DNA of 64,000 nucleotides from Obrimoposthia wandeli (lineage: Eukaryota). Within the stretch, counting starts at the first letter, position 1; every line of letters begins with the position of its first letter. The translations under genes were made by a program, and so were the position numbers. Below are positions 17,581-57,500 of this stretch, piece by piece. Below the pieces are notes generated by a model, which was not told the origin of the DNA, did no database searches, and saw nothing but the letters and a program-made list of their open reading frames with translations. The stretch is from positions 372,001-436,000 of the forward strand of contig CDROCS010001558.1 of NCBI GenBank assembly GCA_977020255.1, written 5' to 3'.

Positions 17581-17621
17581 GCAAACACTTTCTTCATTTA
17601 AATCCTCGACAATTTGAAATA

Positions 17622-18449: not shown

Positions 18450-18932
18450 GAATATATCATAGATTTTTAGGCTTTCATTAACAAAAATGAGGATTATATT
18501 ATAAAAGAATTATGTATTATGGATGTATGCGACGTTTCTCATCCTTTGCATTTCATATTTCAAATAGATATCCCGTTTAAAAGTTTAGATTATAAGAAAC
18601 AATTTACTAATTTATATTTAACTAATTATTTTCATTTATTAAAATGGAAAGAAGGACATAAGGCTTTTTGTGAAATATGTATTTTCGATACTATTAAATC
18701 TAATTTTGAGATTGAAAATGGAATTTTTTATGTTTTAGATAAAATTGTTGGCAAAAAGTATAAGACTTTAAAAAAATATTTTCCCAAATTGAGGTTGAAT
18801 ACTTTAAATATTTCACGTGATCATCTATTAAAAATTCCACGAAATATTTGCTGTCCATATCGTAATCATGGTGACCATTGCGCATATAAAAAATGTTTAA
18901 GTCTTTTTTATTATTACTTGACATGTAGATAA
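18450..18932 (+). pseudogene. DEDD-exonuclease-like Polinton accessory ORF, copy B
   Basis: Duplicate of 16896-17384; start lost and the DxE Glu codon changed to TAG (EYIIDF*AF); remainder open. Confidence 0.6.
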
Positions 18933-19132
18933 ACAATTCTTCTAATTCATAATTTTCATTCAATTACAAATAATTCTTTTGATTGAAGGAATAAAAAATA
19001 TTTTTTTCGATCATTTAACATATAAACAAGCCTTCTCAATTGTTTTAATCCAATAGGAAAAGAGCATGTGTGCATAAATTTTAGTATATAAGCAAACACT
19101 TTCTTCATTAAAATCCCCGACTATTTGAAATA

Positions 19133-20886: not shown

Positions 20887-23127
20887 TTAATTTTGCTCGA
20901 ACATAATAAAAAATTCCATTGGTTGTCGACGAGGTTTGATATTTATTGGAGTACATTCAGTCAATATTCTATGTTTTAGTACCTCAGTTTTTGCTATGTC
21001 CCATTTATCTTTCATAAATATATTTCTAAATTCTTTACAAATTGGTACGACTTCCTTCATATTTTCGGTACACGTTTTCAAAAAAAGATTCCAACGATCA
21101 TCTTGACTTACTGACAAACCAAATTTATTTTCTAAATTATTTACTTCATTTATTAATCTTTCATTGATGTTTTTCACGGAACTCAAACGATCAAAATCGG
21201 CTAATTTAAAATTAAACTTTTCCAAAATATTGATTCCTAAAATTATGCTCGGTTTAATTTCTTTTGCAACATAGTAAAATCTACCTATGTTTTTATTTTT
21301 ATGTTTTAAAACTATATTTAATGTACCTAATATTTCCAATCTACTTCCATTAGCACATGAAACGTTATTTTCATTCATAATCTTATTCATACTACAATTA
21401 GTTATATCTAAAACATTTTTACTTATTACACTTATTTTAGCACCAGTATCTAATAAACAACTTATTTTTACATTATTCAACTCAATGTTAATGAACGGTT
21501 GGCCATCGCTATTATCATCACCAACAGTTAAAAACTTGAATCATATTTTTTGTTAATTAAAAAACATCATTAACTAAATCATTTTCAATAAAATCTACAT
21601 AATCATTATTTATTTTAATTTTTTACCATTCTCAGTATCACATAAAACATTACTATTCAAACTATTTAAATCAAACTCACAATCCATACATTCTTTATCA
21701 CAGTCATACTTAATTGTCTTCAAATTATTTACAAAACTACTTACATTAGATTCAGGGCTCCGATCATTTCCCCGTTTGATGGAGCCAACTCGTTTTCCGC
21801 CTGGCTGTGATTCTGTTTTTCCACAGTAATGTAGTCATCGATGACAGCAACTGGCTTCTTAATCTGGTCAGATCCTTGGTATCTCTGCTGATTTCTTAGC
21901 TGATGGACTGAAACATAATCTCGCTAGTATCTTCGCTCTTGTCCAAAACTGCCATTTGATACTTGCTGATCTCGCTGATATATTTGCTCTCGTCTTAATC
22001 TTCCATTTGGTACTTGCTAATCTCGCTGATAGCTATAGTTTTGCATGTATCCTTTATTACCTTGATCAAGTTTCCGGTAGCATTAGTTGATCGTATGTCC
22101 ATTTCGTCCGCAGAATGAACTATGATTGTGAGGACATTCTCGTCTAATATGTCCAACCTCATTGCAGCAATAACATTGTCGTCGCTCATAGTTTTCATTT
22201 ATCTTTGTCTTTTCAAGCCTTATCTGAGCTTATCCTTGAGTTAGCTTCATGTTCATTGGATTTCGATAAGCAGGTCTTCCATTTTCCACAATTCCAGCAT
22301 AAGTTCGATTATTTAAAGAAAATATCGGCTTTTCAATTATTGACTTCTTATTTATTTTTCTTCCAATTTCTTAATCATATCCTTGATAAATTTTGTTGGA
22401 GTATGTCCTTTTTGTTCTGTCCATTTCTTCGTTGCTTGGTTTTGGTTTCATCTTCAAAATGTCACCAGTGAGTTCGAGTCGGTTCATTTCTTCTGACTCA
22501 TCATCGAGACAGAATTTTAGTAAGAATTCTGTTAATTTGGAGGACGTAATCTTATGTCGCATTACATTCTCCACATTCTTCTCGATACGCTGAATAAAGG
22601 TGTCGACTGAATCATTACCTTTCTTGTATTTCAAGGCATTGAATAGGTCTGCTGCTAAATCTTGTCAAATGCTTCTTTAAGATTATCTTCAGAATTCTTC
22701 TTGTCATATGTTTAGTCATATTTTTCATGACATTTCTCGGTCATAAATACTCTAATCAGAATATTTCTTTGGCTGACATCGAGTGATATCATTTCAAAAT
22801 CTGACCTGATCTTCGGCAGGAACTCTTCGACTTCTTCTGATTCTGTATATTCTTTTGGTTGTGGAATAAGCTTCACGAGTTCTTCTATACTCGGCTTCTT
22901 TGATTCTTGTTGCGTGGTCGCCATGTTAAGTCTGTATAATACTTCAAACTATATTAAACACCAAATCTACCGTTCTCGTTCTGTGTGCTCTTTTAAGTAA
23001 AGCGCACTGTGGGGAAATGCAAGTAGTTGTGCAATAAGATGAAGAAAATTAGTTATGCAATCATACAGGTCAAACAATCAATTAATTAGTTTATTGTGAG
23101 ATTATAATTATAATTATTTACCTAACA
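20887..23127 (-). mobile_element. Ty3/gypsy LTR retrotransposon 5' remnant (short LTR candidate, gag, protease, start of RT)
   Basis: gag-like fragments 22924-21995; aspartic protease LLDTGAKISVI (ORF 21480-20887) followed by KHRILTECTPINIKPRRQP. TG...CA 120-bp LTR candidate 23008-23127 with a polyA signal on the minus strand. Truncated before the RT core. Confidence 0.75.
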
Positions 23128-28036: not shown

Positions 28037-30627
28037 CTGAGAGAGGCACCGAGATTTACAAATTTGTAGAATGCTAATTTAAATTCAAAAATTTCAGAGC
28101 AAAGTCTATAAGAATCCAATTTATTTTAAGGGTTTAATGATTTTGAAATAAAATTTTAAAAATTTGACCTTAGAAATGGAAACTGAAAACAACTATGAGT
28201 GAAAGATTCGAAAAAATAACATAATGGAATATTTGAAGTTTAGGGCTACGCAACCTCTCCTTAGTGGAATAATCTTGATACAGCTGACAGGTATTTCTTT
28301 AGTAAAAATAACCACAACTTTTATTCTTGCTTGTTCACGATTCTATCTCGAACTCGTCGGGGTGCCTATGGAAATTAGCAAATTCTGAAGACAGTGTATT
28401 AAGATGAAGGTAGTAAAATGTGGTTAACTACAGTTTACAATTGATCAGGTATAAGAAGAATCTAAATATGGCCCACTACTATCGATCCTTAAACTAGTAC
28501 TGAGCACCGTGTCGAGTTACTCATTTAGAGGGTGGTTGAATTTTAGCTTTTGAAAGTAGATTTTAAAACAGGAATTAAAGATTTTAACTGGATGGGTTTT
28601 ACAAAATATGAAATATTTCTAAAATAACTGAATCAATCTTACTGATCATAACAATTAGTTCTCGTACAAAATAGTCATTTTCGTTTCGATGATTTCAACA
28701 ATTATTTCTCGTCTTCAATATTTGTTCAATATAAAGTAAGCTACAGCTTTTTATATTGGTGGTTGACAAATCAGGATAAGCTGATTCTGATTTGCTGCTC
28801 AGACTGAAATTTATTTTCTTCAGTATGTAGCTATGTTGCCCTGGTGACTTCTGGTGTTTGCTATGTCACTCATCTACGGCAATCAACTCACTTAGCTAGC
28901 CTCACGTTACTTGACTTATACAATCATCAAGGTCACCTGAGGTTAATTAACTCATTTTTTGAATTAATAAACCCCCTAAAAGTCTTTTTTGAGTTTTAAT
29001 TACAATATTTTACTATTTTCATTTGCTCTTAATATGTCCTTCTTGGCTAAGACAATAATTATAGCTAATTTGTATTGAAATTTTGATCTTCATTTGTCCA
29101 TTTCTGAAAATCAAAATTACGAATTTCAAGAATGCAATTAATTTTAGAAGATTGTTGAACACCTTCCTAGAAAGCATTATGAAAAATTCTGGTGACACCT
29201 AGTTGAATTTTCGAAAAAGTACATATCATCAATTTACAGTCTTAGATATCCCGTAAAACAATATTTAGATGCGTCTTTGAATCATGCATGATCACTAGGT
29301 TCCGGTGATATACAAAATAAATGTCATATTATCTTAAAGTTAAATGATTTTAATAAAATGACGTATTCTCATAATTTTTATGAGATGAAAATTTCGGTAT
29401 TGTATGCAGTAACTTATCATTTGATATATTTAAATTCATGGTTAATAATATATTGAAACAGGATATCTTGCGGTTATAATTAGAGATCAGTTTTATTGTA
29501 TACCTTTTAATTTTAAAATTAATAAAGAAGACACAAAAAATATTTGAAACAAATAGTCATAGATAGGTATTATTAGAGAAATCTCATTAGAGATAATAAT
29601 CCTCATAAACAACAACTTCATCGTTCAATTATCCAATAATTCTAGGTTATGCCAGTACATCATGAACAATGTGACCTGATTTAATACAAGTTAATTCCTC
29701 GACAAACAAATCATTTATGGATCATTTATGGAAAAAAACTGAGCAAAATACAGTTATAATAGAAGCGCGGTTACAATTAGAGAACATAGGAAATATGGTA
29801 TATTAAATCTAGGTAAGAATATTTTCTTGATTTTTTTTAATAAAATTAGTATCAGGAAAAGCTTTGTATCAAATATGTATTTTAGCAGTTCAGTATGACT
29901 CATCAAAATTGCACGATTCTACATTGCTTTATTGATATTTATAGAATTTGATATGCGTTTGAACACACAGTGTAGTATATCGGTATTAAGGGGGAAATCA
30001 TTTTATTGTCATTGTGCGTTTTGCATTTTACTATAATTAGAGGTCAGGTGATTAATAGCATTTAAAAATTTCATCCTAGGCAAATATTAGAGGTTAGACG
30101 ATTATTGGACACTGGGCGAATAATAGAAGAAATACGGTATACTAATTTAACTAAACGGATTCAAACAATAATTCTCGTCAATCCACACCAAATAAAACTG
30201 TTAGCAATCACTCTAGAACAGAGGCAGCTGACTTCTTTTGGCAAAGGGCCACACATTTTTTGAATTCTGTGGGTCATTATAAAGCAGCAGATTTTTAATG
30301 ACATTAAAACCATTATTGATTTATTTAATTTTATTCTATTCCAATTTTCCTATTTTACAGTTAAAATACGAATATATTATATCAATTATATTATCAATTA
30401 TTATTATATATTATATCAATTCGTTTTCATATTACTCATTGACCAGAAATACATAAGCTCAGTAAATATAAGGTGTTATTGATTGCACATGAAACACTTG
30501 TGGCCGCACGAAACCCTTCGAAGCCCGCGCGCTGTTTGTTGCCAGATCCTGCTCTAAATATACATACCACAACATACTGCTGTTTGGCTAAGCAGCTATG
30601 CAACTTAAATACACGACACTTTATCAA

Positions 30628-30790
30628 AATATCCCATGTCAACATCACCCTAATATCCCGTGTCAGCGTCCCCATAATATCCCGTGTCAACATCACTCTG
30701 ATATCCCGTGTCAACATCACCCTAATATCCCATGTCAAAGTCACCCTAATATCCCGTATCAACGTCACCCTAATATCCTGTTTCAACATC
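30628..30790. repeat. 24-bp minisatellite, ~7 copies
   Basis: Unit AATATCCC(G/A)TGTCAAC(A/G)TCACCCT, same family as 42616-43800. Confidence 0.92.
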
Positions 30791-30936
30791 AGTAGGTATA
30801 TGTGACTTCTGGCCCAACAAAAAAAAATTTCCCCGATTATTACAATCATTAAATGTCAAGAACATAAGAGTCAATTGTTGTTAAGGCAATGATATTTCTA
30901 ATGTAGAATTCAATTGAAACTTGGAATATATATATA

Positions 30937-31836: not shown

Positions 31837-32203
31837 TATATATATTCAATAAGAATATTAGAAGTAATGTTTGGGAGATAAATTAATAAGATTTAATTTG
31901 ATTTAGAAGATATGCTCTAGAAGAGAAATCAATGTGATGTATAAGAGATTTAGGATTGTGGTGGTGAGATATCATAATACTACTGTTCTAAGGAGAAATT
32001 ATTCATAATATTTTATAAATATTGTAGACATAGCTTGTATTGATATCTTTGCATTCATAGATTTTATCGTGGTTACAGAGTCTTAATTTTCAAAGAGTAT
32101 GTATTTTTATGTATTTTTACTAATGTATGTATTTTACACATATTTCTATCATAAATAAGAAAATTATAGCTAAAGTAGATATTTTACTAAAATTCTTCTA
32201 TAC

Positions 32204-32563
32204 TGTTTGTTTACATTTTGACATTAACTTTAAAAAGTCGAACTCCATCGCATAACTTGAACATTTATTTGCATTCATTAAAATAACACTGATTTCTCGA
32301 CCCCGACTCTGCATTCCGAAATTTTCCAATGAAACCCGATACTCTGAACTGTCTACTCGAAATCGAAAATTGAAACTTGTCTAATTTGAATACAAAATAT
32401 ATTTTTTACTAATGTTTATTTAAATTTCATTATTTATACCATATTGGTATTTATGTTTTCCGAAACTGAAACTGCAAAAGTACGGTAATACATTTAAATA
32501 AATTGCACTTCCGCTGTTTACTTTAATTAATTATCTTTTTGAAATGCAATTTATATTGCAACA
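32204..32563 (-). repeat. 3' LTR of the BEL/Pao element
   Basis: 360-bp direct repeat of 39942-40298. Confidence 0.95.
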
Positions 32564-32619
32564 TACCCCCTCGATTAAATCCTAATCAATAATACAACAA
32601 GGGCATGTCACAAAGAAAA

Positions 32620-35600
32620 TGCTACCTGGACAAAAATCAAAGCGGCAGAAAACAAGAACTCTTTCTCTCGCAATACCCTACACATACATTTCCTACATAC
32701 TTCGTCTTCTCCTTTCCTTCCACCATCCATTTTACTACCCGTACCAATCCATCTTGTCCTTTTATTAATTCTAGTATTCTTGCCAATGGTCATTTTTCTC
32801 GTTCATTTTTTCTCTCCAATATCAGCACGACATCGTCTACTTTTAATGGTTCTTTCGTTTCCCACCACTTCTGTCTAACTACCCACATCGGCACGATCTC
32901 CTTCATCCATCATTTCAATAATTGCTCCACCAGACCTTGTAACAACTTCCACCGATGTTTTACATTATTCGCGGACAGTTCGCAATTTACCGTACCTCTA
33001 GGTATCAAAAACCTATTTGGCGTCAATGAAGTAATTTCCTTATTATCTTGACTCACATAACTCAATGGCCTAGAATTTACAAGACTCTCAACTTCAATTA
33101 ACATCGTATCAAATTCTTCATCCGACAATTCGCACTCTTCATCACTCTTTTCATCGCCCTTTTTACCGATTTTACCATTATCTCAAATACACCACCAAAG
33201 TGAGGACTACCTGGCGGATTGAAAACCCATCTAATATCATTATTTACTAACTCTGCTTTAAGTGCATAAGTATCGAACTTAACTTGTTCTATTAGATTTG
33301 CTGTTCCCACAAAATTCAAACCGTTATCCAACAACATTATTGTTGGCCTTCCTCTTCTTCCATGAACCTTTTAAAAGCTTTGACGAATGCATCAGTGTCC
33401 AAACCATATCCCATCTCCAAATGTACCGCTCGAGTCTGTGGACAAGTAAATAGACAAACATACCTTTTTGCTCTTACCTGTCTCCGACCCTGCTTTGTCA
33501 AAAAAGGTTCTGCAATATCCACACCGACTCTTACAAACGCCCTTAGTGGTTTTTCCAATCTGAACTGAGGTAATGGTGCCAACATATTTTGCATATAGGC
33601 TGCTTTTGCTCTTTTGCAAATCACACATTCCGTTTAAATTTTTCTAATTAATCGTCGAGCCTTTAAAATCCAAAATCTTCTCTGTAGTAGACTTAATATA
33701 TGCTGAATTCCGGCGTAGTGAAAATTCCCATCATGTAAATATTTCACTACTAACCTTGCTAACCATCCTTCACCTGACAATATCACTGAGAACTTACTAT
33801 CATAATTAAAAAAATTCAGCATAATTAATCTGGACTTTGTTCTTATAATCCCTCCTAAACTTTAAGATTTTGCTATTTTTAAGACTTCCCCAGTCTTCAC
33901 TAAACTTTTTATTTATATCTGAAAATATTTCATTTGATCTTCTTTGATCAGCTTACTAATACTGAGTTCCATTTCTTCAACGGGTAATTCTCCTTTTATC
34001 CACACTTCTTTTTTCTTTCTACAATTATCTATAAATCGATCCATCCAAGCTCTTATCCTTTTTATTTTTGTCAATACTTTTCAATTTCTAGTATTTCTTC
34101 ATGTACGGCTTTCACCTCGTATGTCAATAAGGTACATACTTTCTTCTCAGTATCCTCAAATTTCTCAAATTTACTATTTATCGTCCACATTTCTTATGTT
34201 TTCTTTAAATATTCTGGTCCTTCATACCACTTCCTGATAGAGACACATTCATTTACACTTACCCCTCGCGATAAAATATCCGCTGGGTTTTCTTTTGTCG
34301 GTACATGTTTCCATTGATTTATATCTGTTGTTTCTTGGATCTTTCCAATTCTTTTTGCAACAAATGGTTTATAATTTCTCCCTTGTTATTATATCCACCA
34401 CAACACACCTTCACTATATGACCATAATATCACCTTCTTACAATCTTCATTCCACGATCTCGCTATAACTTTTGTTAGTTTAATCCCTTCACATGCGGCC
34501 ATCAATTCCAATCTCGGAAAACTCACTGTTTTCAACGGTGCTACTTTCGATTTCGCTGCTATTAACGCAACTTTTAGTTTCCCTTTATTCCTTGTCCTTA
34601 GATATGCAACGGATCCATAAACTTCTGATGAAGCATCTACGAAGACGTGAATCTATCTCTCTTTATCCAGTTATATTCCGACCCATCTCGGAATTTGAAC
34701 TTGGTATAGTTCTTGCATTGTGAAAGCCACATCATTATATCTTTCTTTAAATCTCCTTCTATCTTTTCATCTCAACCTAATCCATTTAACCATACATTTT
34801 GCATTAATATCTTCGCTTTCACAGTAAACGGACTCACGAACCCTAAATGGTCAGATACTGTTGACAAAATACTTAGGAATTCTCGCTTACTAATATTGAT
34901 ACCGTAATCTACTTTGGTTTTGATCATAAAATAATCTTCTTGAGGATCCCACTGAATTCCTAATGTCTTAACGTTCTTCATCTTTAATACCTTTGCTTGA
35001 TATAATAATGGAATCTGCTTGTTGATTTCTTCAATACTAGTTATCCATTTTTTGGCTTCCATTTTCGCTCCTTTCAATAATTATTTTACTTCAGACATTG
35101 TACTCTTAGCTATATCTTCTGTATCTACAGAGCACAATGTATCATCCATATAGGTATTTTCCAAGATCAATATCGCACTATCTGGAAACTTATCCTTGTA
35201 TCTATCTGCATTTGCCCTCGATACCGTTTGTGCCTAAAATGGCGATACATTTAACCCGAACACTATCCGTTTATATTCATATTCGATACATTTCCTTCTT
35301 TGTCGTTCCCTAAAAAAACGTAACCATTTTCGATCCGAACGATCTACCTTTACTTGTAAATACATTTCCGTGATATCACAAGTCAATGCAATTCTTTTGT
35401 CTCGAAATCTCAGAAGTATTTCCATCAAGTCTCCCTGTAGCTTTGGCCCGCTATCAATGAAATCATTTAAACACTTGCCGCAGTCTTTTGCGGCGGCGTC
35501 GAAAACTATTCTTACTTTAGTAGTATTTCTATCCCGTTTTACCACTGGTAAATGCAGTAAATACAATCGCGTCTCCTTCGTATCTTCTTTCTTAAGTGGT

Positions 35601-36480
35601 CTTATGTACCCTTTTTCTATTTGATCATCAATGATCTTTGAGTAATCTTCTGATAATTCATTATCTTTATTTGACCTTATTTGCAAACTCTCCAATCTTC
35701 TCATTGCCATTTGCTCATTAACTTGAAGTTCCATAATCCCATTTTTCCATGGAATCTTCACTTCATATCTTCATTCTTCCATTGCCATCGCCTTTACGCT
35801 ATTCTCGTAACTCAGTTTATCCGTCTTGTTCATTATTTTTGTATCGTCACAAAGGTTTTCAACTTCCAAAAATCGACGTAGCTGACTGTCTAATTATGTT
35901 CCCCAAATAACTTCTGATGAAGTTTGTTTGGTTTTTGTATGTCCTTCCAAAATTTGCTCGACCTACACATGTCCACTCTAGTGGTGTCCTTCGTGCTATT
36001 GGATCTTTAGATCCTCCCCATCGTTCTTCAATGCTCCTATGCATTTCAATTAAATCTGCTTTTATTAACATTTCGACTTTCTTTCCATTATCACTTACCG
36101 AGAACATGATATTTTGTCGGCGTTTCCAGCTCTTGTTGATGCTGTTCCAATCAACTACTCGTAAGTCACCCGCGACTTCTTTTATCGCTAACGCCTGTAT
36201 TCTCCTTCTAAATGATTTTTCTAAATTTTGAATTAGGAATGACACCCTCTTGCACTCCTAATTCTTAATTTGTCCGCCGATAACTCCTACTGGTGTGCTC
36301 ACTGCTTCGCCTTCTAAACCTAATTAATCAGCAGCTGTCTTGCTAATGCAGCTTACCGTACTCGCATCATCCAATAAGGCGTTCGTCCGTTTCTTATAAT
36401 TACTGGTACCGTTCTTAACATCACAGTTGAATTGTGATCAACGTGGAAATTTGTTTGATCTTGGATGCAATAGCCAATTA
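32620..36480 (-). pseudogene. BEL/Pao pol (protease, RT, RNase H, integrase), many stops and frameshifts
   Basis: NALLDDAST (protease); LHLPVVKRDRNTTKVRIVFDAAAK...GPKLQGDLMEILLRFR; TYMDDTL (RT); CLFTCPQTRAVHLE; DNGLNFVG; FNPPGSPHFGGVFEIMVKSVK; IEVESLVNSRPL; LTPNRFL. Confidence 0.92.
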
Positions 36481-38473
36481 TGTTTGGTTTTACATCCGTC
36501 TATTTTGCATTATGGTTCTCTTCTGCATTCTTTGACCCAGTGCCTGGCTTTAGGCAGTTATTACACAGCTTCTTCTGCTTAACTGCTTTCCATCTTTCCT
36601 CTGTATTCATTTCTATAAACTTAAAACATTGATCAGTATAATGTGCTTCTCCACTATTGTGACATTTTTACCATGTTTCAGGAACCGTTCTTGTTGATGC
36701 TAATTCCGATTGTTCTGGAACTATTTTCTCAGATGTGTCCCCAAAATATATTTATCTTCTAGTATATGTTTTCCTTTGATTACATCGGTCCATTTTGACA
36801 AGCTTGTCTCCTAGCTCAGGTTTTCTTTTAGTATCCTGACATACTTCTTCTGCTTCCCTTAAATCTTTCGTATTTTGCTGGGCCCATATCAGCCCATATC
36901 ATCAGTCTTCTAGAGAATTTTCTCTACCTTCTCGTCTTTTCCAACTTGTCCATTTTAACATTGCTTGTCAAGGTAACTTTCCTAAGAATGTTTGATACAA
37001 GCAACTGTTTCCTAAATCTTCAGTTTTGTTCAAACTTCTTAATTTTACTAATATATTTTTTAATAATTCTGACAACTTTTCAAATTCTGAGACTTCGTCA
37101 TGTTTCATTATTTTTAACTTCTCAACGTCCTTCAATACGTTTCGATAATTTCTTTCGTCCCCTCCATATATTTCTCTAATCTTTCTAATGCTTTATCATA
37201 AGCTTCTTCTGATAATCCTAAATGTTCTACCAATCTAAATGGTTCCGATCCTAAATACTGTCGCATATGCAATAATTTGCACGTTTTTTCTACTCTTTTT
37301 CTTCTGATTAATTAGTTAAATGTGGTTTTCCAACTTTCGTAATTTGAGTTTTGACCACCAAATATAGGCAATGTTAACCTTTTTAATTCTGTAAATCCAT
37401 TCCTATTATTTGATTGATTGCTCGTTGTGGATGCTATTTTGCTTTCCATATCTGTTCTTAATAGTTCTGTTGACAGTATTCCTAATTCGTCGTGCAACAT
37501 ATTTATTTCTTCTAATTCTTTCTCTAACTCATTTACCCATTCTTGTCTTCCCAAATCAGATGTTACCCTTGTAAACATGTTAGCTCTCCTGATACCATCT
37601 CGAAATTCTCTTCATAGTCTTCCAACCTTCGATCGGTTTCTTTACCGCTTATGATGCCTGAATTGCTAAATTCCTAGTCCTTGTCAGTTGTGCCTTTTTG
37701 TATCTTTTTTCGTACAAGTCTTTTCTCAACTTTTCCTCACGATAACCTAAGATTCTCTCCTCATCTGAACATCCTTTTAACTTAAGTATGAAGTGTAATG
37801 TATTTCCCTTATTGATTTTATAAATTCATTTCCTGATTGTTTTCCTTCAAAGGTTAAGTTTTGTACCTCTGTAGGTAATCCTAATTTTTCGTTTATTATA
37901 TCATTAAGCTTGATTATCTTATTGTCCATAGACGTGAAACCGCTTATTATTTCCCCTGTAAAGGTTTTTACAAATATTTGCCTCTTTTCTAAATCAAAAG
38001 GCAAGATATAACTATTAAAACTTTTATTAACTAAAAAAAAATTTCTCATTTTGAGTAGCTGCCATCTGGATAACTTTAATCTTCTTTCCTTTATAAGTCC
38101 ATTTCCCCTCGTACATTTCATCCACTATTTTTAATTGTGATGGTCTTACTTTTCTTTCTTCAGCTATTATACTTTTTTATTCTTCATTTGAAATTCCTTG
38201 ATACACCTGCTTTCTTCTGACCTTTCATTGTTTTTCTATCGCTATTTCCACTTTCTGCTTTTTTTCTTCTTTTAAGTTCCAATTCTTATGCAGTTTTAAG
38301 GCCTTTTTAATCATTTTATTTTGTGTCTTTTTAAGACTTTTTTCCATCTTTATTCTGGGTAGTTGATATTTAATGGCTTTGACTACCTCCTGGCTATAGC
38401 TTTGTCCTCCTATCTCCTCTAAAGGTGTCTCCCTTTCTTCTTCTAGAACCAACTTATTCAATAGGACACTCAC
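36480..38473 (-). pseudogene. BEL/Pao gag, disrupted
   Basis: ELKRLTLPIFGGQNSNYESWKTTF (Pao gag DUF1759-type motif), charged helical N-terminus, Cys/His knuckles near 36500-36670. Confidence 0.8.
37772..37980 (-). other. Ubiquitin-like domain embedded in the BEL/Pao gag region
   Basis: QIFVKTFTGEII...INEKLGLPTEVQNLTFEGKQ and, after one frameshift, YKINKGNTLHFILKLKGC align with ubiquitin MQIFVKTLTGKTI...[20 protein letters not shown]...YNIQKESTLHLVLRLRGG. Confidence 0.85.
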
Positions 38474-38722
38474 TCAGTCCTCCTCCTCCCCCTATTCCTT
38501 TTCCTTTTTCTCTCTTTCCTATCTTTGTTTTCTGCAGCTTTTCTTTTATTGTCTTTACTATTACTATTATTTGTATTATTAATATTATTTAATCTTACCC
38601 CTTGCCTCCCGTTTCCAGACTCTCCACTCTTCCTGCTTACTGAGACAAGCTCTTTTCATGTTTGTAAAGTTCTGTTGACTCGTGTGGCAAGAGGTTGATT
38701 TTTTATTATTTAATTATTTAAT

Positions 38723-38930
38723 TCACACATAGGGTAAGAGAAACAAGAAGATACAATCAATCACAAATGAATCATCGACCCGTTCTGGAGCTCCATCTTC
38801 TGTTTCTTCGGCCTCTGGATCCTCTTCAACAGCCTTTGGTGTTTCGTCAACAACCTTCACTGCTTCTTCAGTAACTTTGGTTGCCTCCTCTACGACCTTT
38901 GGGTTCTCCTCGACAACTTTTGTCACTTCT
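38723..38930 (-). other. Acidic KV(V/T)EE-repeat coding-like segment within the BEL leader
   Basis: KVVEENP KVVEEAT KVTEEAV KVVDETP KAVEEDP heptad repeats followed by a hydrophobic tail; origin unknown. Confidence 0.45.
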
Positions 38931-39243
38931 TTTAAATATAATTTTTGAACGACGCCTTATGAAATTTTTGATTATTTCCGAAATCGCTTCCAACTATATC
39001 ACTCCATGACATTTCTCTGTTAATCCCGTAATAATTATTTATATGTATAAAGTTTAAAAAATTTAAGTTTTTTTTATTTATTCTTTTCAAAATTACAATA
39101 CCCGAACCCCTAACAAAATCCCCTCGTATACTTTCCCGGGGCAATTTGAAGGGGCCACCACAACCTAACAGATTAACCTCAACAAATTCCGACTCAAATA
39201 CAGCCGTCACACTCAGTCGATCACCAAGACCTCTCTGTGCCAA

Positions 39244-39895
39244 ACCACCAACCAAAACTTCCACAGATTGTATATCATCTATACTTATTTTAGCTTCTTC
39301 CAACATTTTCGAAAGAGTCTCCGTAACCTCCTGTAATAGAGAAGTTGAAAGATTCTCGAAATCATCTCGCTTTATTCGCATATGAACATCAACATCATTC
39401 ATGAAACATTCAATATTCATTGGGATCTCAGTGGAATTTGCACTCACCAATTTTTTACGTTTTTCACATTCCTGAGTGAGACGAATATACGGTTTCTTTC
39501 CATCAATTACATCCAACTTTAAAGTGCTCTCAAAGTTGATCTTCGCCTGCTCATAATTAACACGGTCAAAGCCTCTTCCATCCACATATGCACACGTACT
39601 TGCAACTACTTCATTTTAACTTTGTTAAAAGCAACAATATTTGCTTGCAATTTTGAGTATCCCATGTCAATAAATGCTACTTGTCTCGGTTTTTGTTCAG
39701 CTTCTGGAAAATCCGGACAGTAGATACCATATGAAACTGCAGATGCAGTTGTATCATGGATACGTTTTATACAGTTAAGATTCGCAGTTTGTGCAGCATC
39801 TAGAACCGCTCGACGTTCGCTATCAGTAGCAGCATTAGGAACTTTGATCACGACATCTACTACTTTTGTTGATAGATTCATTTCAGCAACTTTTC
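39244..39895 (-). pseudogene. Captured Hsp110/HSPA4-family (Hsp70 superfamily) nucleotide-binding-domain fragment
   Basis: VVDVVIKVP...ERRAVLDAAQTANLNCIKRIHDTTASAVSYGIY..DFPEAEQKPRQVAFIDMGYS...GRGFD...RLTQECEKRKKLVSANSTEIPMNIECFMNDVDV...DIQSVEVLVGG. These are Hsp110-type features. Intronless, with one frameshift. Confidence 0.92.
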
Positions 39896-39941
39896 CATCT
39901 TCAGCGATTTGACCGGTATTAACCTCGTTATCTGCTACTAT

Positions 39942-40298
39942 TGTTTGTTTTCATTTTGACTTTAACATTAAAAGGTCGAACTCTATCGCATAACTTGAAC
40001 ATTTATTTGCATTCATTAAAATAACACTGATTTTTTGACCCCGACACTGAATTCTGAAATTTTCCAATGAAACCCGATACTCTGAACTGTCTACTCGAAA
40101 TCGAAAATTGAAACTTGTCTAATTTGAATACAAAATATATTTTTTACTAATGTTTATTTAAATTTCATTATTTATACCATATTGGTATTTATGTTTTCCG
40201 AAACTGAAACTGCGGAAGTAGGGTAATACATTTAAACAAAATGCACTTCCGCAGTTTTCTTTATTTAATTTTTTTTAAATGCACTTTATATTGCAACA
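39942..40298 (-). repeat. 5' LTR of the BEL/Pao element
   Basis: 357-bp direct repeat of 32204-32563, followed on minus by the PBS-like TAGTAGCAGA. Confidence 0.95.
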
Positions 40299-42615
40299 TA
40301 TACCTTCATCTGAAATATTCAATTTTAAGGGGCATAATTCACTTTTTCAAAGGCAACGTATAGCAAATATAAATATAGAAGACATACCGGGGAGGACGAT
40401 TAAATGGAGCAATTGGAGCAGAAACATAGTAATCCACTGGAAATTGGAATAGAGTTTGAATGTGTTCTGATTGGTTGATACAAAAAATATTTGCAAGGAG
40501 ATGGAATAGAGCAATGAAATAGAACAGACACTATAGTAATATTGTGTGGATGCGTGTGTGCGTGTGTGCGTATGTGTGGATACTTATAAAAATATATGTG
40601 CAAAAATTTGCAAGTTGATTGAATAGAGCAAGGAAATAGAACATAGATACTATAGTAATATTGTGTGTGTGGATACTTACAAAAATATATACTCACAATA
40701 CTCACAAAATATGTACAAGGTATTACCTACAAAAATGTATCTAATTACAAAACATGACATTATTACTCTATCTTTATTATTATTTATATTTTCAATTCCA
40801 TATTGTATATCGATATTGTTTATCAAAAGATAATAACAACTATAGCTTTCTGATAAAAATCGAAGAAACTGAAGACATAAGAAGTGAAATTAGGATATAT
40901 CTACTAATTATGTTTTAAACAAGAATTATTGATGTATTCGATATATGTGGAGAAGTTCGGGAAATTAAAGTAAGTGAGAAATTATGGTTAATTAGAGGTA
41001 AAAGTAAAATATGTATAACTTATTCGATATATGTTTGAAAGTAGGGAAATTGGATGATGGTTTATGTATGAGTTTCAGACGGAAATTAGAAGGTCCTAGA
41101 CCTGAAATTAAAGCATAGATATTAACAATTTAGAAGGAGGTTAGAAGGAAAAAATGACATAGAAGACAAATTGATGGTTCAGAGGATGCTTCTAGAAGAT
41201 AAATTAACAAGATGGGTTCGAGATTATCGATGTTAACCCAATTTCAGCTCGGTTTAGAAGACAAAATAATAAGATGTTTAAACAATTATTCAGCAGATTC
41301 AGAGCCGAAATTTATGATATTTAGGTGGTTAAGATATTTAAGATATTTAAGATATGTGATATTTGTGAGCATTGCTTGGAATTTTTGATTACCGAAACAG
41401 TGTACATTGATAGAGTGTGTATTCGATTCACTTCAGTTTTAGTAGTCTTATTGAAAGTTTACATTTATCATTGTGCGAATAGTAAAGGGATAATCAATAA
41501 CAATCCTAAATGGGATGAGAAGATCAAAAGTAATCAATAAAGGGGAGAAAGTACGAGAGTGAATCTATTTTTTGCTTTATCTCAAAATGGAGGCGGATAT
41601 GTTTAGAAGACATATGACACTTATTAGGAAATTTGATTGTAACACCATACTTCTCTATCATTTCTTATATGTAAACTGAATCGTCTAAGATCGTAACCTA
41701 GGAAAAGAGGATCAATCCGATTTCGAAGCAAGAATATATCATTGATGTCGATATCATTCATATACGAAATATACTATAGTTTATAATATTATGAAGAAAC
41801 TTGTTTTAATTATTATAAAATAATTCTTACAAACTATTTGAAAAATATATTTTTAAACCACATTGCAACTATTTGCAAGTCATATGCAAAATCTTTGTTC
41901 TATTTTTAGAAACATTGTAACATCTATTCTCATTGGTTAATTTGAGCCTCAGTTTTATATAAAGGAAGAGATATTTCATTAATATTGTTAAACATGAATG
42001 CAATTACCTATTTATACCACTGTACCAATACTTTTCATGGATATGATATGCATTTTCTCAAGAAGCATATCCATTACATTTTTATATATCCGGTATCACT
42101 GAAAAAAATCAAATTCGATTACTTAATATTTGATATTAATAAATCAGATATGGAGAGAATCAATTAAATACTTATAAAGATCAATTGCGAGTATCATCTG
42201 CAAGAACCCAAATTCATTATCAAAGGAAATGATTCTATTTTCAGAAATATCAATGAATCAAAACTAGATGTCTGCCCAACTGGATTACAATGGAATATTA
42301 ATATCAAGATACAAGGAGACAAGATCGAACCCAGTGGATTGGTGACTCCGGTTTGGAAAATATTTTATGGATATAATAAATAAATGTTTTATATTTCGTA
42401 TCTTTATTTTCTCCTTTATAATTATTTATTAATATTTAATAAGAAAGAAGCCTGACAGTTATGAATATATTGTTAGAAATATTGATATTTATTGAATCAG
42501 ATGATTCGTGAAACGATAGTAATGAATAGTAACATGAATACCTCAATAAAATGGAGAGAAACATAATAATCTTTAGAAAATTAATACCTAACCTAATGAT
42601 GATTCAATAATCAAT

Positions 42616-43800
42616 AATATCCCGTGTCAACGTCACCATAATATCCCGTGTCAGTGTCACCATAATATCCCGTGTCAACGTCACTCTGATATCCCGTGTC
42701 AACGTGACTCTAATATACCGTGTCCAAATCACCCTAATATCCCGTGTCAGCGTCATAATATACCGTGTCAACGTCACCATAATATCCAGTGTCAACGTCA
42801 CTCTGATATCCCGTGTCAACGTGACTCTAATATACCATGTCCACATCACCCTAATATCCCGTGTCAGCGTCATAATATCCCGTGTCAACGTCACCATAAT
42901 ATCCCGTGTCAACGTCACCCTAATATCCCATGTCAACGTCACCCTAATATTCCGTATCAACGTCACCCTAATATCCCGTGTCAACGTCACCCTAATATCC
43001 CATGTCAACGTCACCCTAATATTCCGTATCAACGTCACCCTAATATTCCGTGTCAACGTCACCCTAATATTCCGTGTCAACGTCACCATAATATCCCATG
43101 TCAACGTCACCCTAACATCCCGTGTCAACATCACCCTAATATACCGTGTCAACATCACCATAATATACCGTGTCAGCGTCACCATAATATCCCTTGTCAA
43201 TATCACCCTAACATCCCATGTAAACATCACCCTAATATCCCGTGTCAACATCACTCTGATATCCCATGTCAACATCACCCTAATATCCCGTGTCAACATC
43301 ACCCTAATATCCCATGTCAACATCACCCTAATATCCCGTGTCAACGTCACCATAATATCCCGTGTCAAAATCATTCTGATATCCCATGTCAACATCACCC
43401 TAATATCCCATGTCAACATCACCCTAATATCCCGTGTCAACATCACCATAATATCCCGTGTCAGCGTCACCATAATATCCCGTGTCAACATCACTCTGAT
43501 ATCCCATGTCAACATCACCCTAATATCCCGTGTCAACGTCACTCTGATATCCCATGTCAACATCACTCTGATATCCCGTGTCAACGTCACTCTGATATCC
43601 CATGTCAGTATCACCCTAATATCCCGTGTCAACATCACTCTGATATCCCGTGTCAACGTCACTCTGATATCCCATGTCAACATCACTCTGATATCCCGTG
43701 TCAACGTCACTCTGATATCCCATGTCAGTATCACCCTAATATCCCGTGTCAACATCACTCTGATATCCCGTGTCAACATCACCCTAATATCCCATGTCAA
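42616..43800. repeat. 24-bp minisatellite, ~49 copies, at the 5' end of TFIIE-alpha intron 5
   Basis: Unit ATATCCC(G/A)TGTCAAC(A/G)TCAC(C/T)(C/A)T(A/G); a few 21-nt variants; begins 27 nt inside the intron. Confidence 0.97.
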
Positions 43801-43827
43801 GGTAGTTACCCAAGCAGCCAGACTAAC

Positions 43828-44117
43828 CTGTGACCACTGTCGAGGAAACTAGACGATGTTAATGCTCCAGGAACGCGTCCCGGGGCCATCATCTGTGTAG
43901 GGGGACTCGCTGCCCTAGATTTACCATCGCCAGAATTGACCGTGTCTATAACAGAGCCGGTACCGATAAGTTGTCTCGCCCAGACAGGATTTTCTTTGAT
44001 ATGCTCACTGCCGTCCTTGAAGATCTGGCTCCAGCTGGCGTCGCTGCGCAGATTGACAGCGATCTGCTGCTGCTGCTCGATGGCAGGACCTCCTGATTCC
44101 CCCGCTCCAAGTTTGTT
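43828..44117 (-). CDS. GTF2E1: TFIIE-alpha exon 5
   Basis: Acceptor CTGCAG; contains IKENPVWARQ (cf. AKERPIWLRE); donor AG|GTTAGT, phase 2. Confidence 0.8.
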
Positions 44118-50978: not shown

Positions 50979-51268
50979 ATATCCCAATCTACCGAGGAAT
51001 AGACCACAAGGCAGCAGATTCCCAGTTATCTCCAGTCTATTTTTCAATCTATTTCCTGATCTCGCCAACTCGAGCAGACTAGACTAGGAGACGAGGATCC
51101 AGTGATTGCGGAGAAAATAAAGGATATCCCAATCTACCGAGGAATAGACCACAAGGCAGCAGATTCCCAGTTATTTTCAATCTATTTTTCAATCTATTTC
51201 CTGATCTCGCCAACTCGAGCAGACTATACTAGGAGACGAGGATCCAGTGATTTCGGAGAAAATAAAGG
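50979..51268. repeat. ~145-bp tandem duplication
   Basis: ATATCCCAATCTACCGAGGAATAGACCACAAGG...GGAGAAAATAAAGG at 50979 and 51124. Confidence 0.9.
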
Positions 51269-51334
51269 TATAAAGACCGAAAATTTAAGGAAGTTTTTGC
51301 CTTTATTGAGTAAAGATAAAATAAAGTTGTCCAA

Positions 51335-52190
51335 ATTAAAAGAAGATTTTGCCCTTCATTTCGTATTGATAATTTAAAGCTTGTCCAAGATAAAATAAAG
51401 TTTTTCCGATTTAAAAGAAGATTTTGCCCTTCATTGCGTATTGACAATTTAAAGTTTGTCCAAGATAAAATAAAGTTTTTTCCGATTTAAAAGAAGATTT
51501 TGCCCTTCATTGCGTATTGACAATTTAAAGTTTGTCCAAGATAAAATAAAGTTTTTCCGATTTAAAAGAAGATTTTGTCCTCCATTGCGTATTGACAATT
51601 TAAAGTTTGTCCAAGATAAAATAAAGTTTTTCCGATTTAAAAGAAGATTTTGCCCTTCATTGCGTATTGATAATTTAAAGTTTGTCCAAGATAAAATAAA
51701 GTTTTTCCGATTTAAAAGAAGATTTTGCCCTTCATTGCGTATTGATAATTTAAAGTTTGTCCAAGATAAAATAAAGTTTTTCCGATTTAAAAGAAGATTT
51801 TGCCCTCCATTGCGTATTGATAATTTAAAGTTTGTCCAAGATAAAATAAGTTTTTTCGATTTAAAGGAAGATTTTGCCCTTCATTGCGTATTGACAATTT
51901 AAAGTTTGTCCAAGATAAAATAAAGTTTTTCCGATTTAAAAGAAGATTTTGCCCTCCATTGCGTATTGACAATTTAAAGTTTGTCCAAGATAAAATAAAG
52001 TTTTTCCGATTTAAAAGAAGATTTTGCCCTCCATTGCGTATTGACAATTTAAAGTTTGTCCAAGATAAAATAAAGTTTTTCCAATTTAAAGGAAGATTTT
52101 GCCCTTCATTGCGTATTGACAATTTAAAGTTTGTCCAAGATAAAATAAAGTTTTCCAATTTAAAGGAAGTTTTCGCCCTTCATTGATTAT
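51335..52190. repeat. 75-bp tandem array, ~11 copies
   Basis: Unit AAAAGAAGATTTTGCCCTTCATTGCGTATTGACAATTTAAAGTTTGTCCAAGATAAAATAAAGTTTTTCCGATTT; highly homogeneous. Confidence 0.97.
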
Positions 52191-53539
52191 TCGATTTTCC
52201 AATTTAAAGGAAGTTTTGCCCTTCATTGATTCTCGATAAATTAAAGTTGTCCAAAATAAAGGAAGTTTTTGAAAATCTATAACTTGAGCTTATTCTCGAG
52301 TTAGAGGAACAACTCTAAAAATCTCGATCCCCCTTAGCGTAAAATCGATACGTGGTTCATCCCCACTTCTTGTAGAGACTCACAGAAGTCCTTTAGGAAT
52401 TTTATCATACTTTTTAGAAATACGTACATAAACGTATTGTGGTGTTAGTTACGTGAATTTTGAATAAACAATTTCCTACATTAGAACAAGTTGTTTTTAC
52501 ACCCTTCAGACTAAGAGACGTCAAATCAAATACCTTCAGATAGTACAAGAGATTAGGCAACCATAAAACTAAGTAGGCCACGACCAACTTTAAGACCTGC
52601 TTCTAATCGAACTCACGTTGGGGTCCTCCGCACATAAGAGGCTCTATACCAAGTTTCGTATAGAAACCCCAACACATGCTTAGAAGTCACCTAAGCTACG
52701 TAATGTTAAACAATTTCTATAGAAATGCCTCTTACGTAAGGGTCTCGAATGTCTAGTGAAAATTTTTGATTATGCAGTTGTATTCTTATAATTATACGAA
52801 CGATACCCAAGTATGGTCATGGACCAACAACGACAATTCAGAGCTAGATTCAGATCAAAGTATTTATCTGCGCTTGGAGGAATGTTTTTAGTGTTCTAGG
52901 CGATACCGAGGAGAAACTGCAGCTGGTCTTCCTTCACGCTCAGCCTATTGTTGAAGGTTTTGCCAAGCACCACGGCTCATTTCGCTAAGTCAATTACTAG
53001 AGCCAGTGACCCCACGATTTGATATGACTCCTCGAAATTCACTTTGCCGTCCCACTCACTGGGATCGACTTTCAAAAATTCTTTCGACAAACCAAGGCAA
53101 TCGAAAAGCTACAGAGTTTACTCCGTAAAGAACTGCACTATCATATTTTCACTGGAACCTGATGCAAAGACCGATTAATTTGGAGTATTGATGTTCCTGA
53201 CCCGTTTGTAAAGAAAAGAAGCTGAGGTGAAGGCAGTGTGAGTTTCCAACCTGGGTGCCGACTGCTCATGGACCAGCTCCAAAGCAACCTCGTATCTCGG
53301 ACTATCCTCGACTTTCTTGTATCAGGCTTCCTTGGGGACGACTTTCCACTTCTAAAGTACACCGTCGACGCGGTCCTCGAATCCAATATACCACAGACAG
53401 TCAGGCACCGGCTGCACCTAGAAGAACTCTTGAACCTCATTGCATATTGAAGACATTGCCTTGGTGTGTGCAATATCAAATTGGTTGTCAAACCCATCAA
53501 ACCCATGTTTTTCTTCTGAGTTTTACTCGTTCTATCGCA

Positions 53540-53760: not shown

Positions 53761-54234
53761 GATTAAATATTCCGATTAAACGTACAGAAAATCCAACAAG
53801 TGGACACCATTGTGTACAGCCGTGGCTAAACATTTACGATCAAAGTAAAATATAAAGAAATTGGACTTAAATAAACATTGAGCTACAACAAATTTCGCAG
53901 CCTTGTTAGTCAATCAGATTTCAATAAATACAGTTCTTGGAAATCGATACCATTCTTAGAAATAGGTTGTTTTCGTTTCCTTGAAAATCAGTTATGGTTT
54001 ACTTACAAAAATGATAGTAATCGATAGTATATTTACACAATTTAATGACGTTTTTTCGGTAATTAGATAACTAAACCTTCATTGAATCAAGCCTGAATTA
54101 TCACCATGTACAATATGTACAAGTATTCTGTGAATGTAATTATAGAAATAATATTAAGATAATTTCAATGACAAAATTTTATAAAATTTACTGATTTCCA
54201 CAAAAATGGTTAACTCTACGGGACATTTACTTAC

Positions 54235-54414
54235 CTTGACGTTGATGTAGTAGTAGTCTTTCTTGATAGTCTTCTCATTCTCATCAGTCGAAGCCTGCAT
54301 TTTTTGTTGGATAAGTTTGTCCTGGAGCAACTTCGTTAGGCAACTTCTGATAGTGGGGTGATCGAGATTCAGCTTCTCCGCCAGATCTTTATCGGTCATG
54401 TAATTGTGATGCAT
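54235..54414 (-). CDS. GTF2E1: TFIIE-alpha exon 2 (winged helix)
   Basis: TCACAG|MHHNYMTDKDLAEKLNLDHPTIRSCLTKLLQDKLIQ...KKDYYYINVK|GTAAGT; matches [28 protein letters not shown]...RHNYYFINY; 180 nt. Confidence 0.92.
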
Positions 54415-54474
54415 CTGTGAATGAAAAAGAAAACGAGGAGGAACATTTATGATTGGAAAATAAGAAAAACTCAC

Positions 54475-54576
54475 TAGTACATTCATAAGAGATAAATGTA
54501 TAGGATCATAAAACACTTTTAAAATTGCCAACAGCATCTGCCGTATCTCCGGATATAATTTAAGTCTGTTATTCAT
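54475..54576 (-). CDS. GTF2E1: TFIIE-alpha exon 1
   Basis: ATG 54576; EIRQMLLAILKVFYDPIHLSLMNVL|GTGAGT matches [24 protein letters not shown]; 60-nt intron to exon 2. Confidence 0.85.
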
Positions 54577-57500
54577 TCTAAAATCTATTTACTTTTAATA
54601 CATTATCAAAAAAATCACACACTTCTTTATTAAATATTTTGTAAAAAACATTAGAAGCTTAAAGTAACTAAATATTGAAAAATGAATTTAATTTCAAGAA
54701 AATCAATCATAAAAGTTTAATTGCAGTTATGTTAAAAATTAATTTGATTTATTAACTGACAATTAAATTTAGTTTGGTACATCCAATGCCAATCATTCAT
54801 TCTTAAACTGAAGTGATTTTAGGATACCACTGGTTTATTTTTGTACTTTGTACCCTGAACTTTTATTTTAAGTTAAATTAATTTAGAATAATTGATTAAA
54901 TTAATTAAGTATCCGCAATTGTTACTATATCGCGATTTATTTACGTGTGTGCGTGGTATAAATTTACATATAAATAATTGTTATCTCCCGGTTTGTATGC
55001 TTTTTTCTATGGTATTTGTATAAATCATTTAGCAATTTTAGTATGATTAGCTGATCCAGTGATTTTATTACTGTTAAACTAGAGATTCGCGACATATCTT
55101 GCAAATTTACTATCACTTTCACTTGATGCACAATCTAAACCTTTGAATACCTCTGGAAGTCTTCGATTTGCTAATCATTTCAGTAACCCTTAAAAATAAT
55201 AAATAGAGAATGCCAAAACAAGTTTATTTTAAATATTAATAATAAAACATGATAAAACAATATAGTGAAACATAAAAAAATAATAATTTAGTATTAGATT
55301 AAAAATCTTTAAAACTATCGATCAGAGTATTTAGTGGAAGAGCATTGTGAAAAGCGCGATTTTAAAAAGTTATGTTTATAACAAAATTAAAAAAGAATAT
55401 ATTACATGTATGAAAAAACTATTTAGATAATAATCTTAGGGAATATTTGATATACAAGAAAATGTTTGCAGTACCCTTCAAATCACTTCGTCAAGCCACA
55501 TTATAGGAACATAGGTTAAAGGCGACTGATCTAATGCATCAAATATTCACATTCATTACTTACTGTTTCGTGAATTCCTCTTGAATGTACGTATTCTTAA
55601 TGTATTGAGCAGGCACACTATATATATATAAAATGATTATATTCTTACGAAAAGTGTTTCAATTGTTTTTGACAGCCAGAGATTATTGTCTTAATCAAAT
55701 TTGTAAAATTCGATGCATTATATAATATTTTTGTAATCTAACTAGCTTGCTACAGTGTTTATGTAAAAAGTTGCTCTACGTTTATTGTCATCTTACATAG
55801 TTTTGTGCTATACTATCTTATATATACTGTACTCCTAATCAAAATTAATTAAATATTCCAGTTTTGAAACTTAATGTCGAAATTTTACAATAAAACGTTT
55901 ATCATCCATTAATAGTCATTTCCATATTACTTCATAACATTTGTATTAACTCGCCATTTACCATTACATTCTATTAAACAAGAACAGATTTAAAAATTAC
56001 ACTATTGTTTAAGGTGAAATCGTTAAATAAATTAATAAAATTGTTATATATTTAAACTAATTTAAATTAACTTTGCACCGTAGAATCATGCCAGTGTCAA
56101 ATTGAGAGCTTTATGTGTTCATATTTTTATCCTACTATAATTGTTATTAAGCTTAAAAATATATTTGAAAATGTACAAATTATTATTTTTATTTGTATTG
56201 AATAGATAATTTATAAATTTAAATGTTACATTTCTTACTCTATATATAAATTTTATCATAAAATAATGTAATGAAGTCTAAAAGTATTTAAAATGTTCAT
56301 TGATAAAAATAATTATTTAAAAAATAAACAATTTGAAAGTTTGCCTCTATATAAAACATTTTGAACTTACTTTCGTTAAATTACCCTAAAATATAAAACC
56401 CATGAAAAAATAATTCTAAAAGCTTCTAATTTAATTTACAACTATATTTAAATAAAATTAAAATTTTAATGTTTTAAATTAAAATTCTATCATTAGATAA
56501 AGTACAAAAATTATAGACATTTTGATTACACAAACGTTAAAGTGTTTTAGGATTAAGAAAACAAAATTTTGTATCAAAGACGAAATAAAAATTATTTTAA
56601 CAAAAGATATAGACCAATTGAAATTAAATTGAAAAAATTAACATTATTTTAAAACAAATAAAAGTGCAATAATTCAGGTCATATTCTTAACTAAAAAATG
56701 TCCCAATATATATAAAATAATATAGTACACGAATAAAACATTTTACATTCGTAAAGTAATAAGATTATCTTTGAAACAATTAAACGAAAACTTAAAATTG
56801 ATTATATAAATAAGTTTCATGTCTTAATAAATATTTAGTTATTTACATTCTTACAAATAAAAAAGAAATATAATTTAATGTTTAAAAGACGCAAAAATAA
56901 TAAATAAACATTGAAATAAAACATTTTGCACTTTAAACATCAGAAAAACAACTAATAAAATGAAAATTTATGGAAATCAAAATTAATAATAATTAGAACG
57001 ACCCATTTCATTATATTTAAGTACATTTCGTTTAAATTTTGAAATTAATTATATATAACATCAGATTCTTCTTTGTTCAAGATTTCTACTTGTTCATCTA
57101 TTTTATTTCCCAGTTCTTCTTATGAAACAACTGAAGTCTATCATAAATGACATATTTAAGTATTTTCAACATTTATACCATCAGGAGATTATAAAGACCA
57201 TTTCAGTAAATTAATATTGTACATTTGAATGACACCAACAACCCGTTTGGCTATGTGAGGCATTGCATTATTATGTTGGTATGTGTAAGGTAGTCCTAAC
57301 GTATCGTTAAAATGTGCTAAAATATATCATTCAAATTACAATTCATATGTTTCATCAAATGAAAATTCCAATAAAAGTTATAAAACCGTAAACCATAACT
57401 CCTCCTTCCAAAATACTCACAAATCTCTTAAACATGTGTTGGGAATTAAAATATTACAATTTAAATTTAAATCAATTTATCAAAGTGCCCACAGTCGAAC

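Follow-up and report, generated by a model that had tools for sequence, protein, structure and literature searches.

Retrotransposons with long terminal repeats (LTRs) are known to capture pieces of host mRNA, and such a capture usually cripples the element. A decayed BEL/Pao element of Obrimoposthia wandeli carries, between its LTRs, a fragment of an Hsp110 gene. The locus raises the question of how this fragment entered the element, whether it was multiplied together with it, and what, if anything, it does there. Here, we analysed the whole stretch of 64,000 nucleotides that contains the element, which is called the window below. The explanation that we favour, and that we regard as fairly probable, is that a piece of host Hsp110 mRNA was captured by template switching, that it was amplified to tens of copies, and that it was read in frame ahead of a Gag that is predicted to be cut free at a ubiquitin domain.

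The BEL/Pao element and its Hsp110 piece

The element is a single, decayed BEL/Pao copy of 8.1 kb, which occupies positions 32204-40298 on the minus strand. Its features, in the order in which the element is read, are the following.

40299-40303 and 32199-32203: target site duplication of 5 bp, beside the 5' LTR and the 3' LTR, respectively
39942-40298, minus strand: 5' LTR, 357 nt, TG...CA
39894-39950, minus strand: end of the LTR, primer binding site (PBS) and a short linker; the frame of the first Hsp110 piece is open throughout, and a stop is found just upstream in the LTR
39931-39940, minus strand: PBS-like motif, 1 nt after the 5' LTR
39244-39893, minus strand: fragment of an ATPase domain of the Hsp110/HSPH1 type (residues about 127-345), interrupted by one frameshift near 39610
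38935-39243, minus strand: 103 codons without a recognised family, which continue the frame of the second Hsp110 piece without a stop
37981-38934, minus strand: rest of a decayed coding-like extension, with 7 breaks against 12.8 (1 of 1000 shuffles as low)
38726-38956, minus strand: acidic repeat piece, inside the extension
37769-37980, minus strand: ubiquitin-like domain (UBL) directly before Gag, broken by frameshifts, its terminal di-glycine not intact
32682-37768, minus strand: decayed BEL/Pao gag-pol, colinear with the intact relative P0171
32564-32572, minus strand: polypurine-tract-like run before the 3' LTR, read from the sequence
32204-32563, minus strand: 3' LTR, 360 nt, TG...CA

The element belongs to BEL/Pao: gag, protease, reverse transcriptase (RT), RNase H and integrase follow each other in one frame, and TG...CA LTRs, a short target duplication, a PBS and a polypurine tract are all present. 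The Pao-type RNase H region (PF05380) was matched with an E value of 4.6e-21, and the colinearity of gag-pol with P0171 spans residues 151 to 1958. Including the UBL, gag-pol has 22 stops and 15 frameshifts per 1758 aligned codons, and the copy in the window is therefore dead; the stop counts imply a decay of 6-9%. The PBS-like site, which we take to be of the initiator-Met tRNA type, agrees in 9 of 10 letters with a motif present in 25 of 80 related loci. Matches to this motif within the window are at chance level (3 seen against 2.3 expected), and the site is identified because of its position 1 nt after the LTR. The two LTRs differ by 20 mismatches and one 3-nt gap over 360 aligned columns. 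All 21 differences are located at the two ends, with none in the central 158 nt (P 9e-5 under random placement). Gene conversion or recombination is the likely reason for this uneven pattern, and LTR identity thus understates the age of the copy.

Several other features were observed elsewhere in the window. These are a TFIIE-alpha-like piece at 54157-54588 (Pfam E 1e-9), a 368-codon frame with two RING fingers at 3827-4930, a P-loop ATPase piece at 9999-10394, which is presumably Polinton-like, a duplicated 1.5-kb unit with open frames at 16902-19740 and a retroviral-type protease piece at 20887-21540. Tandem arrays at 42567-43850, 30507-30844 and 51176-52300 are made of a 24-nt unit, in two places, and of a 75-nt unit.

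The frameshift near 39610, which is absent from an earlier note made on this DNA, divides the Hsp110 fragment into two pieces, and there is no in-frame stop. The first piece (residues 127-221, E 1.8e-25) and the second piece (residues 230-345, E 1.7e-24) both have human HSP105 as their best match. The next-best match of both is yeast Sse1 (1e-18 to 1e-19), and Hsp70 proteins are far weaker (about 1e-7 to 1e-8). By descent, the fragment is thus a member of the Hsp110 (HSPH) subfamily, nearer to HSPH1 and Sse1 than to Hsp70. For comparison and for the tree described below, we used the 92 of 150 matching Hsp110 proteins that have at least 340 amino acids and cover the segment. Against these, the fragment has 0 missing and 0 extra columns. 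Being gap-free over 217 codons, the copy in the window has no intron, which does not by itself show that an intron was lost. The earlier note had described an intronless Hsp110-type ATPase-domain segment of ~650 nt, in sense orientation, starting ~35 nt downstream of the PBS and lying between matching LTRs with an intact target duplication. This description is accurate: the fragment is on the minus strand like gag-pol, and its distance from the PBS is about 37 nt. The same note had named a target duplication of the insert's own, or a poly(A), as marks that would speak against capture by the element, and neither was found. The longest word common to the flanks of the two junctions has 5 nt, a length equalled or exceeded by 1900 of 2000 random pairs, and there is no poly(A) at the 3' end of the Hsp110 piece.

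The fragment is not a working Hsp110, because residues 1-126 and everything after residue 345, including the whole substrate-binding part, are missing; what is present is also frameshifted here. From what we know of the fold, we assume that residues 127-345 alone cannot work as a chaperone. At 51 well-conserved columns, 12 are altered in the fragment, about as expected from the window copy's own decay; the median in intact genes is 5, and 7 of the 92 have as many alterations or more. A chaperone role of the piece is unlikely.

A coding-like stretch from the Hsp110 piece to Gag

The earlier note had placed the insert in the leader of the element. This placement is not supported. Read from 39243 to 37981, the stretch between the insert and the UBL is interrupted by 8 breaks, of which four are stops and four are frameshifts. 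Its block shuffles have 16.9 ± 2.2 breaks, and 0 of 1000 were as low. Four gag-pol blocks of equal length have 6-9 breaks each (0 of 500 shuffles each), and the decay rate of gag-pol predicts about 9 breaks for the extension. The antisense strand of the extension has an ordinary break count. In flank controls, 2 of 10 segments were fairly open (2 and 4 of 300 shuffles), and none was as far from the null as the extension. The supposed leader is decayed coding sequence, as coding-like as gag-pol. The first part of it, the 103 codons past the Hsp110 homology, is open without a break, as in 7 of 20000 shuffles. The window holds one decayed copy, in which private and shared breaks of the extension cannot be told apart; from these counts we infer that one continuous frame ran from the Hsp110 piece to Gag in the parent element.

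Searches with the 103-codon tail and with the later pieces gave no convincing Pfam family or solved-structure match, and an atlas search with the tail gave one sub-threshold lead (0.77). Asn/Lys-rich and Lys/Glu-rich pieces are found within 37981-38934, for which no family was found, and there is no likeness between the extension and the N-terminal end of P0171. The segment 38726-38956 has an acidic 7-residue-like repeat with a hydrophobic end, again of no family found; it may be a second captured piece.

On the other side of the insert, the Hsp110 frame is open across the PBS to 39950, a run of 16 codons that is at chance level (5234 of 20000 shuffles). In the 3' LTR, the frame corresponding to that of the Hsp110 piece has no stop over the final 59 codons (635 of 20000 shuffles). 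The frame that crosses the PBS in the window differs from the one used by its relatives.

These relatives were placed by an RT tree of 88 sequences with at least 330 aligned residues each; shorter sequences, L045 among them, were left out. The window groups, with support of 1.0, with L001, L002, L003, P0169, P0170 and P0171. Within this group, the N-terminal end of Gag is on record for L002, L003 and P0171. In these three and in L045 (4 of 4), a ubiquitin domain with a di-glycine end lies right before Gag, in the same open frame. The UBL of the window and its UBL-Gag junction each align with those of P0171 (0 of 2000 shuffles each), and an atlas search with the UBL-Gag part of P0171 returned only generic Gag clusters. 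A profile built from these four domains detected none among the remaining 77 loci and 31 proteins, though only 41 loci extend at least 600 nt ahead of the Gag core. With its RT in the clade and its UBL directly before Gag, the window element belongs to this ubiquitin-before-Gag clade of BEL elements. On these sequences, the ubiquitin domain is old and common to the clade as a whole. In P0171, residues 124-226 comprise a near-perfect ubiquitin tail, then a diverged full unit, then Gag, which suggests a captured polyubiquitin piece; the first unit could be an assembly join.

In three members, the frame is open before the PBS and on into Gag, over 540 codons upstream in L002, at least 136 in L003 and at least 86 in L045. 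The PBS motif occurs in 22 other loci; in two of these, a frame leads from the PBS into gag-pol, and it is open for 6 and 29 codons upstream of the PBS. L003 has 30-nt and 54-nt tandem repeats (L003:1-320 and 574-735) in the open frame before ubiquitin. L002:509-8152 is an intact BEL frame of 2547 codons. It begins with residues 1-39 of a GMF protein (E 9e-7), which are joined to a TRAF RING-zinc finger segment (E 8e-16), and these are followed by a stretch of no family, the in-frame PBS, ubiquitin and Gag-Pol. This cargo would lie in the LTR, since it comes before the PBS (the 3' LTR is outside the L002 contig), and its position thus differs from that in the window, where the cargo follows the PBS. 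L002 suggests that elements of this clade take up host sequence in front of ubiquitin-Gag and in its frame. The earlier note had also counted the Hsp110 piece and the UBL as two proteostasis-related host modules that the element acquired. A common theme of this kind is not supported: the UBL is clade-wide and old, and the cargo of L002 (GMF, TRAF) is unrelated.

Donor, copy number and rival explanations

In the Hsp110 tree, the piece is sister to P0005 with support of 0.99. Both lie in a weakly supported group (0.72), in which the six members of named source are all flatworms, from Macrostomum, Schistosoma, Trichobilharzia, Hydatigera and Neobenedenia. The donor is likely to have been a flatworm host gene, as judged from the tree. 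An exhaustive protein search with the first piece gave relatives of at most 59% identity and no close host protein, and word-based protein searches with the second piece gave no match. There is no Hsp110 in the 80 related BEL loci, and no related BEL locus was found among viral contigs.

The piece is truncated at both ends, in sense orientation, gap-free and of flatworm type, without poly(A) or a target duplication of its own. Together, these features support capture of the gene piece by the LTR element, and this part of the earlier proposal stands, without its placement in a non-coding leader. A partial piece within one LTR element, with neither poly(A) nor its own target duplication, is what characterises LTR-mediated retrocopies. 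These also replace part of the internal open reading frames; here gag-pol is complete in layout, and the piece may have displaced some of the extension. The capture probably went through an RNA intermediate.

Copy number was approached with contigs from four runs (X1-X4) of one sample, which may be the source of the window, with copy-specific letters collapsed, or another individual; of the words of the region, the runs contain 0.23-0.39. Relative to the median depth of the element body, the insert stands at 0.29, 0.31, 0.33 and 0.29 in X1 to X4, and the neighbouring 600 nt at 0.37, 0.31, 0.24 and 0.26. The insert is 25-91 times deeper than the median of low-depth long contigs, contig depth being a rough measure and not a copy number. 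At four insert positions, 9-17 X1 contigs have a letter different from the window. Letters private to the window (40 of 877 listed) number 4 in the 650-nt insert and 33 in the 5750-nt body, which is an equal density. Position 39928, in the gap between PBS and insert, is covered by 4-9 contigs per run from other copies. Among the matches listed, no contig bridges either insert junction by 31 letters. No joint that skips the insert was seen among the 15 of 243 listed, which are too few to weigh. Contig depth in this one sample thus indicates that the insert is likely present in tens of copies and is not a one-off; in our reading, an active parent passed the Hsp110 piece on to a subfamily of tens of copies. 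About two thirds of the family depth is without the insert. At 39138, ten X1 contigs diverge from the window on the gag side, and there is thus a second lineage with a common insert-adjacent stretch but a different extension.

The favoured explanation can be described as a series of steps. A host Hsp110 mRNA would have been co-packaged with an active ancestral element, and two template switches would have copied a piece of it into the element. The insert-bearing element would then have multiplied to tens of copies, in which the Hsp110 piece would have been translated in frame, at the start of a single long polyprotein. Host deubiquitinases are predicted to cut behind the di-glycine of ubiquitin and so to free Gag with a fixed N-terminal end. 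In an element that is read as one frame, only captures that are in sense, in frame and stop-free would survive, as observed here, and given a cut at ubiquitin, anything upstream of it would be dispensable. The Hsp110 piece is, on this reading, tolerated cargo, and it is probably functionless.

The strongest rival is an ordinary LTR-mediated retrocopy, an amplified passenger that was untranslated or separately read, in frame by chance and with no tie to ubiquitin and Gag. One random junction in three would keep the frame, the 16 open codons over the PBS are no more than chance would give, the only copy seen has eight breaks on the way from the piece to the UBL, and re-amplified retrocopies are described in the accessible part of PMC5131818. 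We nevertheless consider this rival rather improbable. The break density of the extension equals that of gag-pol, in three relatives a single frame starts ahead of the PBS and continues into Gag, and in L002 host pieces sit in that very frame.

It is more doubtful that a function preserved the piece, whether as a decoy protein that acts on the host chaperone system, through small RNAs that arise from it and target host Hsp110, or as a shield from silencing. About a third of the family depth carries the insert, lobe II of an Hsp70 has been crystallised alone (1xqs_C, 191 aa), and the available text of PMC13534243 offers a precedent for small-RNA targeting. There is also a deficit of stops in the insert, with a raw P of 0.009. 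After correction for codon make-up, the piece and its tail together have 1 break against about 5.2-5.7 expected (P 0.02-0.04), but significance is lost when the Hsp110 part is taken by itself (P 0.11-0.14), and we settled on this test with the data already in view. Since the deficit shrinks on correction, we do not claim selection. The altered conserved columns, which reflect little beyond the decay of this copy, the cargo that varies among relatives and the large share of the family that lacks the insert also speak against a function.

A low-depth contig (run X3, record 23) bears on a third rival. Over 39681-39899 it can be aligned with 27 differences and one gap, and 50 nt on the PBS side are left unfitted. 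This contig may be the host Hsp110 gene. If so, the 5' switch point would be near 39895-39899, and that third of the piece had no intron to lose. The rival itself is that a host exon entered the element at the DNA level, through repair or gene conversion, or that a spliced read-through transcript joined it to the element, with no template switch on mature mRNA; in its favour, the contig is intron-free over 219 nt. We hold such an origin to be very unlikely: no intron remnant is found across the 217 codons, and both ends are cut within coding sequence, in sense, as in the retrocopies described in the part of PMC5131818 at hand. An assembly chimera, or a depth that stems from an expanded host Hsp110 family, agrees with the lack of a spanning contig among the matches listed and with the roughness of contig depth as a measure, but it is scarcely credible, given the intact target duplication and LTR ends, the frame that runs on for 103 codons beyond the 3' junction, the similar depth of the insert and the adjoining non-Hsp110 sequence in all four runs, and the contigs of other copies over 39928.

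Returning to template-switch capture into a ubiquitin-spaced frame, we tentatively propose a wider role for this layout, which we consider possible. Ubiquitin would serve as a host-cut release site before Gag, and the extension as a cargo bay, in which different lineages load different host mRNA pieces in frame (Hsp110 in the window, GMF and TRAF in L002), remain mobile and express these pieces at high copy number as free chimeric proteins. The element would thereby be an exon-shuffling engine, its products maybe acting as decoys against host pathways. If ubiquitin is the cut site, this would explain in a simple way how host fragments can be carried and exchanged by such elements; captures should be in sense, in frame and upstream of ubiquitin, and a free cargo protein should be detectable.

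Comparison with known systems

LTR-mediated retroposition in animals was described by Tan et al. (2016, PMC5131818), whose accessible text includes cases in the Pao elements BATUMI and BEL18_AG, sets out the template-switch route of capture and the re-copying of retrocopies, and cites maize Bs1. The window insert is like these retrocopies in that it is a partial coding piece, cut at both ends, in sense within an LTR element, without poly(A) or its own target duplication and probably able to be re-copied. In that text, the retrocopies replace part of the internal open reading frames, and they are non-autonomous and found at few sites. In contrast, the gag-pol layout is complete in the window, where the piece precedes it as part of a coding extension and where contig depth points to tens of copies. 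The fixation of extra domains in LTR elements is called rare in the accessible part of PMC9289625. Among titles and abstract starts, with most subscription papers, Repbase and supplements outside this scope, we found no description of Hsp70 or Hsp110 capture by LTR elements and none of ubiquitin before a BEL/Pao Gag.

The nearest parallel for the ubiquitin domain comes from cytopathic pestiviruses. In BVDV CP Rit, according to the available portion of PMC8310069, ubiquitin lies in the polyprotein and host hydrolases cut behind it, which fixes the next N-terminal end. As is likely for the window element, a captured ubiquitin is part of a polyprotein, with host sequence upstream. Pestiviruses are RNA viruses, and their captures, as presented there, are recent dead ends for which cleavage was shown, whereas the window clade has an old, clade-wide domain before Gag, at which cleavage is predicted.

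Planarian Burro/GYPSM1 (PMC6431247, in its accessible part) is likewise a flatworm LTR element with host-like polyprotein domains, and Ubi2/SUMO is found among its motifs. It is a giant Gypsy element of over 30 kb, with its extra domains after an N-terminal Gag, unlike the 8.1-kb BEL/Pao element of the window, which has its extras before Gag and a truncated cargo. Drosophila telomeric retrotransposons, as far as the available text of PMC13534243 describes them, resemble the window family in that host fragments are fixed in the family consensus and amplified with the family. They are non-LTR elements with 140-235 bp pieces of piRNA genes, for which small-RNA evidence exists and which are proposed there as a small-RNA source or a shield from silencing; the window piece has 650 nt, is in frame and is known from DNA alone.

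Capture of host pieces by LTR elements is known. What sets the present case apart is the position of the cargo, ahead of everything else in a polyprotein frame with a ubiquitin spacer, in a family with gag-pol kept. The Hsp110 piece appears to ride there in a family whose gag-pol layout is preserved, and it is this layout, rather than the Hsp110 piece, that deserves attention.
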